The position numbers are program-made. Below are positions 36,001-39,000 of a stretch of DNA of 64,000 bases, in pieces (positions within the stretch are counted from its first letter, which is position 1; each line of letters starts with the position of its first letter). Source of the DNA: Albugo candida (lineage: Eukaryota); contig JBDOQK010000007.1 in NCBI GenBank assembly GCA_040437565.1, positions 558,001-622,000 of the forward strand, in the 5' to 3' direction.

Positions 36001-39000
36001 TGGTTTCCGTCCATGTCCAGATACTGGATTGCCTTGTGTCATACAAGCCAGTGGAAATACTCAGTTACCAGGAATGTTCAATGTTCGTCCTGGAGACTAC
36101 TTATTATTTATCAATGAATTTTCAACGAGTGGCGTTCGTTTCAAGAAAATCATTGACATTTTGGAGAGTGGCCCACGTCCTGTTGTCTTACGCTTTCGTC
36201 ATAATGACCCAGTGGACGATGACTTCCAAGACAGCCTTCGGTTATCTACAAGTACGACACGTCCGACCTGTATGAGCCTCGATCCAAAAACAGATCACTC
36301 TCTCTACTACATCACATGGAAGGAGAATGATGGATCTTTAGGGATCGTAGTAAAGCAGGAATTTGGCCAATCCTATCCGCGTGTTATAAGTATTAAAAAT
36401 GAAGGAGCAGTCGTTCGAGACTCGCAAAAAAATCGAGTCGAGGTGGGAGATATCCTGCTGAGCATCAACAATAACAACATCACTAAGATGGGATTTGGTG
36501 CAGCCATGAGCCTGCTACAGAGAGGTCCAAAGCCGCTTTTATTGATGTTTCAGCGTCCGCGTATATCGATCGCAATGTCCACTAGGAGCTGCGGAATGTG
36601 AAAGTAAAGATTGCAACAATTCAGGTCATAGAATTTTCGCTATCGTGTTAAATAATATAAGTTTAGAGCGTTTTCTCGCAACAAGGCATTAAGCTTTGAG
36701 GACTTCATGGCTCCAGTCCGCTTCAAATGCAAACGAGGAAAGAGAATGCTCAGGGGCGTCACTGAATTCTGATTTAAGCTCCAAAGGCTTATACGGAACC
36801 ACCTGTTCGGTTGCAATCACTTCGTCAGATACATGTGGGTGCTCTAATTCCAGTATTTGAGCTGCATACTCGTTCAAATTCTCACACCAAATGCAAGACG
36901 CGTCTGCAAAACAGCTTTGTGTATTCATCAGTTGAGTAGCGTCGACACATCGAATCATCCTTGGAGTTAGAGGCACTATTATCAATTGTATCCACATCGG
37001 TCGCGAAAGGTTTCTACAGTGTACTGTCAATGGCAATTGCCTGCCGCAAATAGCTTCGAACCGATTCTTGACGTGAATTCGCACTTTCTCGGAATCGCGT
37101 ATTTCAATGAAGTCATAAAAGTTCTGCTTGAAAAGTTCGTTGGTATCTCGAATGTTGAAGATTGAAGTTGCAATCGCACTGGCACATATAAATTCCCCGG
37201 ACAAGAGGCACCACGCGACTTTGATTGCATCGTTCTTTCTATTGAATTCCATAATTTCGACGAGGTGTATAAATTTGGGATTCGTCATAACTCTTTGTTG
37301 CGAGGATCGGTAAACTGCTTATGTACAAGATAGCGAAACTGATTGTTCATGGCATAGAAAGACCCCATCGTGTTTTAATGATGAGCAATGTAGCACAAGA
37401 ACTCGAAATTAGATCGATCAGTTGGAATAAAAATGCGCACAATGTGTCTTTTTTATACATTGTCCCATCTTTTCACTCTAAATTTGAGTTGTTGGCACCA
37501 GGATACTATTTTAAGCAATGTACTTTTGCACTCTTCTGGGCTTTTTCGATAAAAGTAAGCGTACGCAACGGAAAGACGCGGTCGCGAAAGCTGATATGCT
37601 AATATATCGATACTGACATTGTGGCACAATAGTATTTCGCGATCGACTGTAGGGCATTCAAAGATTGGGTTTTATCTGAAATTATTTATCCAATATTGCA
37701 TTGTTTAGATTATGTTTGCGACATTGTACATGCGCTTGGGCTGGCGTCAGGACAACGTGCGTCTCATCTCCCACATGCGCTTATATTCTATTTCTTCAAA
37801 GGAGCTCAGAAACATACTGGAAAATGTAAAAAGCGGTGCAGTACGTGCAAAAACCCTTCAATTCGGCCTTCATTGAAAATAGCATGTGGGGTATCATCTT
37901 CAGCTGTCACCGGTAGAAGCAGCTGATTCTATTGCACACACGTACCAAAGCAAACCGTCATACGATTCCGTCGAAAAATATGCGAAACTCGACAGAGACA
38001 GAAAGCAACGTACAGGGTTTCCTGAGGTTGTTTATGCCGAAGGAAAGAGCTACGCACAAATGGCCACGATCCTAGAGAATATGATGCGAAGGCCAGCGGA
38101 GCTTGTGATGGCCACTCGAGTGAACAAAATCGATGCACTACAGCTACTACGGCGACCTATTCTGCAGGTTCGATCCGGCCACTATGACAAGGGCAAACCC
38201 GTGACTCGCTTCACGCATATTGAGTTTACTTTGCATGTCTTATCCAGAATCTTGAATATTATGAAACAGCTCGCATTTTGAGTAATAAACCAACGGGAAA
38301 CGCGTTGCGCAGACGACACGTATGATGTAGTATTTCTTAGTATAAGAATCTTGGTTTATGTGAGGATCTGAATAGACTGGAAGCGTGAGTGTCTTGTGTG
38401 CTGGAACTTCGGATTTGCAAGTAGCGGAAGAAGCAGCTATCACCTTGGGTAAAGCGCTTGTATTGGACCTATTTGAATGCTACGCAAGCCCGTGTATTTG
38501 TAAGTAGAAATTGGGGGGCATCGCGTCGAGCGTTCATATGATGTGGGCGTTGCTGGGATTCATCGACTTTTCCAAAATCTTGACAAAGTCAGTACCTCGA
38601 GTGTTGCGATATGTGTAGCAGGGATGGATGGTGCCCTGCCAAGCGTTTTGGTATGCTGCATGAGAGAATAATCGTCTCGGTCATTGAGGAATTCTTGTTA
38701 GGGCGGCTTGATATCCATTCCAATCATTGCTGTGCCGACAAGCGTGGGGTAAGATTGTGCACAAAACATTTTTCTAAGACTTCATCGCTGTTGCAAAGTT
38801 ACGGCGCTGCCTTTGCAGGTCTGGCACCTCTTTTAACAATGCTCAATTCATGCTCGCCGGGAGTGAGTGTTGTCAATATTGATAATGGATTCGGTGCTGC
38901 CATTTGTGCAGGTGCGTTGACATTTTGACGTAGCTGCTTTCGTTGATATTTTTTATATGAAGATCGCATGCTAAGACTCAGTAGCTCTGAGTAATTTGCG

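Follow-up and report, generated by a model that had tools for sequence, protein, structure and literature searches.

A spliced larB gene of the LarB family in the oomycete Albugo candida, probably the entry to nickel-pincer nucleotide synthesis

Gene content of the locus

The window (the whole 64-kb stretch of Albugo candida DNA analysed here) carries a larB gene on the plus strand. G+C content was uniform over the window, with no anomaly at larB. The neighbouring genes are eukaryotic and were located as follows:

28319-31432, minus strand: 2-oxoglutarate dehydrogenase E1
31591-32424, minus strand: MYND-finger protein
32585-36601, plus strand: myosin with IQ and PDZ domains
43770-44997, plus strand: DEAD-box helicase, split

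Gene model

When positions 37700-39000 were read in three frames, LarB-like peptide blocks were found to change frame across short gaps. Joining of seven exon pieces between 37730 and 38928, with six GT-AG introns removed, gave an open frame of 279 codons ending at 38928. This was the structure that the earlier note had put forward, and in the DNA its six introns do leave a continuous frame; at the level of assembled contigs (runs X1-X3, described below) the same was true of introns 1-5, and the splice of intron 6 was not seen. The introns at 37841-37903 and 38168-38247 had been placed exactly, with joints in X1-X3. The six were not the full set: an intron in the 5' untranslated region (37649-37708) and a seventh coding intron (38912-38962) are also present, and the proposed 3' end at 38928 had missed the latter, the true stop being at 38994.

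The eight-exon model (37730-38994) is identical, letter for letter, to the A. candida protein ABG067_001653 (P0001, 284 aa), which carries the database name 'hypothetical protein' and was the sole protein returned for a query with exon 2 (88 aa). The six-intron model of 279 aa is identical to P0001 but for the C-terminus, where intron 7 and the stop at 38994 make the difference; the C-terminus of P0001 aligns with the orthologues, and that of the read-through ending at 38928 did not. The stop at 38928 was accordingly replaced. Position 38818 was also tried as the frame-keeping acceptor of intron 6 and was rejected: it breaks the frame, yet the site is used in the transcript contigs. An alternative in-frame ATG lies at 37712, in the same exon as the annotated ATG (37730), and adds six residues (290 aa).

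The features of the gene and the evidence for each are:

37512-37648, plus strand: 5' untranslated exon, upstream limit uncertain (X1 contig pieces begin at 37512; the X2 contig extends upstream)
37649-37708, plus strand: intron of the 5' untranslated region, 60 nt, GT..AG (joint 37648>37709 in X1 and X2)
37709-37840, plus strand: start-codon exon, ATG at 37730 and in-frame ATG at 37712 (contig pieces span 37709-37840)
37841-37903, plus strand: intron 1, 63 nt (joint in X1, X2 and X3)
37904-38167, plus strand: exon 2, LarB-specific N-terminal part (NF033503 positions 1-51, E 1e-10; 100% identity to P0001)
38168-38247, plus strand: intron 2, 80 nt (joint in X1-X3)
38248-38319, plus strand: exon 3 (gene model; X3 contig piece 38245-38319)
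38320-38375, plus strand: intron 3, 56 nt (joint in X1-X3)
38376-38448, plus strand: exon 4, in which the AIRC/PurE-like domain begins (NF033503 positions 80-102)
38449-38507, plus strand: intron 4, 59 nt (joint in X1-X3)
38508-38650, plus strand: exon 5, with GMDGAL (NF033503 positions 106-150, E 1.6e-16)
38651-38701, plus strand: intron 5, 51 nt (joint in X1-X3)
38702-38748, plus strand: exon 6, last residues PTSVG (gene model)
38749-38798, plus strand: intron 6, 50 nt, AAG acceptor, needed for the LarB frame (gene model; splice absent from the contigs)
38799-38818, plus strand: 20 nt that are also removed when the alternative CAG acceptor at 38818 is used (70-nt skip, frameshift; joint 38748>38819 in X1-X3)
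38799-38911, plus strand: exon 7, with LNSC (Cys255) and the NIDNGFG motif (NF033503 positions 167-205, E 2.5e-16)
38912-38962, plus strand: intron 7, 51 nt, AAG acceptor (joint in X1-X3; required to give P0001)
38963-38994, plus strand: exon 8, final 10 codons and TAA stop, followed by the 3' untranslated region (contig pieces reach at least 39100)

Assignment to the LarB family

P0001 scored 268.5 bits against the NCBIfam LarB equivalog model NF033503 (cut-off 175), over profile positions 1-208 of 209. Four single exons matched the same profile collinearly (1-51, 80-102, 106-150 and 167-205 of 209); submitted singly, these four gave no Pfam match. The complete protein matched only the generic AIRC family in Pfam (PF00731, 54 bits). 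That match, and the names given to the orthologues in UniRef and NCBI, speak for an AIR carboxylase of the PurE/Ade2 type, active in purine synthesis. This identity, to which we attach practically no probability, is refuted by the profile scores, P0001 reaching only 30.7 bits against PurE (TIGR01162), below the cut-off of 149.6, versus 268.5 against 175 for LarB. The structural matches tell against it too: the top solved structure was Lactiplantibacillus plantarum LarB (7mj0, E 1.3e-60, P0001 residues 28-281), and PurE structures matched at E 3e-09 and 1.2e-04 only. Finally, the PurE-like domain is preceded by the N-terminal region specific to LarB (profile positions 1-79; in the 7mj0 alignment, from chain residue 6). 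The earlier preference for LarB over PurE/Ade2 was thereby borne out by the HMM check.

Judged by these profile and structure matches, the Albugo gene product is an orthologue of the LarB family (pyridinium-3,5-biscarboxylic acid mononucleotide synthase). In UniRef and NCBI, most of the oomycete orthologues go by 'phosphoribosylaminoimidazole carboxylase' or 'hypothetical protein'; on the same comparison, both the Albugo label and the purine-synthesis names of the orthologues are assessed as wrong, the proteins being assigned to LarB.

The two motifs read in the earlier note are present in P0001, GMDGAL at residue 212 and LNSC at residue 252. Cys255 of LNSC aligns with chain Cys221 of L. plantarum LarB (7mj0), and its column is C in all 117 rows of the alignment used for the trees below. 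We take Cys221 of L. plantarum LarB to be the active-site nucleophile, so that Albugo Cys255 would stand at the position of the nucleophile; in 2021 work by Rankin et al., Cys221 of LarB is said to form a cysteinyl-pyridine intermediate. Where at least 95% of the other 116 rows agree, Albugo matches 61 of the 62 columns. The aspartate of GMDGAL is D in 17/17 rows of the oomycete clade, and the other 100 rows have E (96) or D (4); replacement of E by D in the GMEGAL motif reads as a conservative change.

Residues 28-281 of the Albugo protein align end to end with chain residues 6-247 of L. plantarum LarB (PDB 7mj0, 7mj1, 7mj2, 8soq), and the LNSC cysteine and the PTSVGYG and NIDNGFG blocks are common to both. 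The LarB of L. daoliensis, which is close to that of L. plantarum, has about 48% identity to the Albugo protein. Unlike the L. plantarum gene, the Albugo gene is eukaryotic, has eight introns and is not surrounded by a lar operon, and its product differs in a basic N-terminal extension of ~20-27 residues and in the D for E in GMEGAL.

Transcript contigs and intron 6 splicing

Evidence for expression comes from assembled contigs of three runs (X1-X3), all belonging to a single study. None of the three runs is recorded as RNA; the exact GT..AG joints in their contigs are the reason for treating them as derived from transcripts. Contigs of X4, a run from a second study, were unspliced and DNA-like.

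Exact joints were found in the X1-X3 contigs for six of the seven coding introns (introns 1-5 and intron 7). Over introns 1-5, the bin depths in X1 match the exon-only expectation, so no retained form of these introns is present in the contigs. The A. candida larB locus is genuine and expressed.

Intron 6 behaved differently from introns 1-5 and 7. The productive joint (38748>38799) was in no contig of the spliced runs X1-X3, and two other forms were found in all three. In the first, intron 6 is retained (an unspliced contig of 127 nt spanning 38721-38847, with depths of 69.7, 26.9 and 9.9 in X1, X2 and X3, respectively); in the second, 70 nt are skipped to the CAG acceptor at 38818 (depths 38.1, 16.5 and 4.5). 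The upstream exons had depths of 104, 71 and 11.3 in the same runs. By computed translation, the retained form would meet a stop directly after PTSVG (237 aa) and the 70-nt-skip form, frameshifted, would stop at 257 aa, both without Cys255. The gene is thus 'intact', as the earlier note had described it, at the DNA level; in the contigs, its RNA forms either retain intron 6 or skip 70 nt.

These observations bear on the possibility that larB is a relic or a largely switched-off gene in Albugo, an obligate biotroph, with intron 6 mostly retained or mis-spliced, the majority of its transcripts coding for a shortened protein that lacks the active-site cysteine, and the NPN (nickel-pincer nucleotide) pathway perhaps reduced or lost. 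The contigs of all three runs hold unproductive forms of intron 6 only, introns 1-5 and 7 are free of any retained form, and the productive acceptor of intron 6 is AAG, with a competing CAG 20 nt downstream. Against this stands intron 7, which is spliced despite having an AAG acceptor too. Moreover, rare variants are lost when contigs are assembled, a contig carries just one depth value, and all three runs stem from the same study. The productive form therefore went unobserved but may still exist; contigs cannot prove the absence of a minor isoform. The coding sequence beyond intron 6 also speaks against decay: in the 117-row alignment, Albugo matches 20 of the 21 columns of at least 95% conservation downstream of intron 6, the invariant cysteine included, which would be unexpected if exon 7 were untranslated (as would the 61 of 62 overall). 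Such conservation speaks for continued translation of exon 7. With the points raised in the next two sections also taken into account, we regard a relic or silenced gene as unlikely.

Orthologues and phylogenetic analysis

Among the matches listed, named orthologues with 52-63% identity came from Plasmopara, Phytophthora, Globisporangium, Peronospora, Bremia, Saprolegnia, Achlya and Aphanomyces. In the full-length search, cyanobacterial LarB followed next after the oomycetes, at about 49-53% identity among the matches listed, and cyanobacteria also topped the matches from species-representative genomes. Identity to any bacterium was at most 57% among the matches listed.

For a quick tree, 117 rows were used: 39 from the 120 matches listed and 78 of 80 loci, two ORFs of more than 340 aa being excluded. 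Fifteen named oomycetes and two unnamed proteins formed one clade (SH-aLRT 97), and oomycetes plus cyanobacteria were split from the remaining rows (SH-aLRT 94). For a more careful tree, near-duplicates and the five longest branches were dropped, leaving 68 of the 117 rows; its bootstrap had not settled. Here the oomycete clade had support of 100/98, and the division of cyanobacteria plus oomycetes from other bacteria plus archaea 100/99; cyanobacteria as one side had support of only 86/50. The oomycete clade spans Saprolegniales and Peronosporales. With rows selected for their similarity to the query and without a known root, the trees show affinity and not a donor.

Cyanobacterial LarB proteins (for example those of Nostoc, Scytonema and Synechocystis) are thus the nearest bacterial relatives of the Albugo protein and its sister group in the trees; unlike it, they are encoded without introns, lack the N-terminal extension and have E in GMEGAL. 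The oomycete orthologues share with Albugo the clade, GMDGAL and N-terminal extensions. These extensions are basic, with few acidic residues, and the bacterial proteins are without them; from this composition they are possible mitochondrial presequences. The Albugo branch is much longer than those of the other oomycetes (terminal branch of ~1.0 change per column, versus 0.05-0.3), a length that fits a relic gene.

That the nearest relatives outside the oomycetes are bacterial might suggest that the gene is a bacterial contaminant or was transferred very recently. Either origin is refuted by the spliceosomal introns with RNA support, the eukaryotic neighbours and the even G+C; the orthologues of both major oomycete branches moreover fall in one clade, and bacterial identity does not exceed 57% among the matches listed. 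We hold this origin to be vanishingly improbable. The long residence in a eukaryotic genome that the earlier note had deduced from intron density is upheld by the eight introns, the eukaryotic neighbours and the single oomycete clade.

Partner genes and clients of the cofactor

The absence of larA, larC and larE from the window, noticed earlier, was confirmed by tblastn with Nostoc, Anabaena and Lactiplantibacillus queries (best E 0.09). Beyond the window, Nostoc LarC was searched against 50%-identity representatives, and no oomycete LarC was recognised among the 10 of 150 listed matches whose names were checked; two of the 10 were named, both Planctomycetota LarC, and the other eight were nameless. 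The same Nostoc LarC query returned bacterial clusters only from the ESM Atlas. For LarA, the query was a Pyrinomonadaceae member of LarAH14/15/16 (797 bits, cut-off 740). Its best 120 matches listed, with 67-96% identity and weaker matches ranking below them, were all bacterial or nameless, and none was recognised as an oomycete LarA. Ranking and nameless entries account for these LarC and LarA outcomes, which are no evidence of absence. The lack of a lar partner gene in the 64-kb window and among the protein matches listed is a further point in favour of a relic gene.

The earlier note implied that the pathway would be new to an oomycete. In fact, an NPN-dependent epimerase of an oomycete has already been published: according to the accessible text of PMC11770544 (JBC 2024), some unicellular eukaryotes possess LarA homologues and genes for NPN biosynthesis. 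The same text shows that Phytophthora nicotianae LarAH15 acts as a D-gluconate/D-mannonate 2-epimerase when loaded with NPN prepared in vitro, and says that the eukaryotic LarA homologues all lie in the branch of LarAH15. Its authors suggest that the enzyme could be targeted to combat oomycete pathogens of crops. This was the only literature found that ties the nickel-pincer cofactor to oomycetes. Use of NPN by oomycetes had been published before, and Albugo larB does not represent a novel oomycete pathway. LarAH15, the known oomycete user of NPN, belongs to a protein family (NCBIfam NF052592, LarAH14/15/16) other than LarB.

According to the parts of PMC11796402 available, LarB converts NaAD to P2CMN and AMP, and the larB, larE and larC genes of Synechocystis are functional, since NPN was made in E. 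coli and the L. plantarum genes were complemented. The same source describes most cyanobacteria as having larB, larC and larE without larA. A non-LarA NPN enzyme has been proposed for cyanobacteria; a non-LarA nickel-pincer enzyme family is described in the available part of PMC13524815. An active Albugo LarB could likewise serve an NPN enzyme other than LarA, or make some other NAD-derived product. This would suit the sister position of the oomycete clade to cyanobacterial LarB, and an Albugo LarA homologue was found neither in the 64-kb window nor among the matches listed. The activity of the Phytophthora LarA homologue with NPN made in vitro (PMC11770544, accessible text) provides, on the other hand, a conventional oomycete client, and the Albugo sequence shows no departure from canonical LarB. 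We rate a client other than LarA as very improbable.

Proposed function and significance

Our preferred reading, which we consider probable, is that positions 37512-39100 (plus strand) hold a nuclear, transcribed oomycete larB gene of eight coding exons that starts NPN synthesis for a LarA-type client. Removal of intron 6 at 38798 would yield an mRNA for 284 aa (290 aa from the upstream ATG). The 284-aa protein, with the full LarB architecture and the active-site cysteine, is predicted to form P2CMN. P2CMN is the first intermediate on the way to NPN, the cofactor that oomycetes use in a D-gluconate 2-epimerase of the LarA type. The gene would have been inherited vertically from the oomycete ancestor, its closest bacterial relatives being cyanobacterial LarB. 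What we infer within this reading is the enzyme activity of the Albugo protein, its connection with a LarA client in Albugo and, as the basic extension at its N-terminus suggests, a possible mitochondrial location.

A bolder proposal, and a distinctly doubtful one, is that the oomycete NPN pathway is what remains of a gene set of cyanobacterial type, related to a plastid, in a lineage now lacking one, and that in the obligate biotroph Albugo the retention of one weak intron and the choice of its acceptor now control LarB or are bringing about its loss.

The assignment corrects the annotation of an A. candida 'hypothetical protein' and of its orthologues, mislabelled as purine-synthesis carboxylases. 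The unproductive intron 6 forms, the only ones in the contigs, give a small lead on whether the pathway still operates in an obligate biotroph, and the cyanobacterial affinity gives another on where the oomycete pathway came from. Beside the sole characterised NPN enzyme of an oomycete, larB would add the first biosynthetic step.

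Transcript ends of larB

The annotated start codon of larB, the Albugo candida LarB gene, lies at 37730, and a second, in-frame ATG was found 18 nt 5' of it, at 37712 (37712-37729). This codon is located in the same exon as the annotated start, 3' of the acceptor of the 5'UTR intron (37708), and initiation there would extend the N-terminus of LarB by six residues.

The transcript-derived contigs of sequencing runs X1 and X2 differed upstream of the gene: in X1 the contigs were broken between 37497 and 37512, and in X2 a single 5.9-kb contig, which began a long way upstream towards the myosin gene, continued directly into the larB 5' exon (37300-37648). 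The joining of the myosin side and larB in the X2 contig could reflect read-through or overlapping transcripts. On the 3' side, an additional GT..AG joint of 50 nt (39102-39151) was present beyond the larB stop codon in X2 only; this joint represents a 3'UTR intron or else belongs to a different plus-strand transcript.

Neighbouring frames

Frames flanking larB in the window
32585-36601, plus strand: myosin, an uninterrupted 1338-aa frame with head, IQ motif and C-terminal PDZ-like matches (Pfam)
36689-37318, minus strand: open frame, 209 aa
43770-44997, plus strand: DEAD-box helicase (Pfam), split in two frames (43770-44363 and 44428-44997)
45249-47810, minus strand: open frame, 853 aa

The PDZ-like matches of the myosin frame were under the Pfam cut-offs, and the split of the helicase is presumably due to a short intron. 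For both minus-strand frames, the Pfam search returned no family at E ≤ 0.001.

LarA homologue in Nostoc paludosum

The Nostoc paludosum genome (G001) carries a homologue (L088) of LarA, the nickel-pincer cofactor-dependent racemase/epimerase family. Its top NCBIfam match was the 'putative hexonate epimerase' model (188 bits, below the cut-off of 500), and it also matched PDB 4nar ('putative uronate isomerase'). Most cyanobacteria are without LarA, according to PMC11796402; a homologue is present in this Nostoc.
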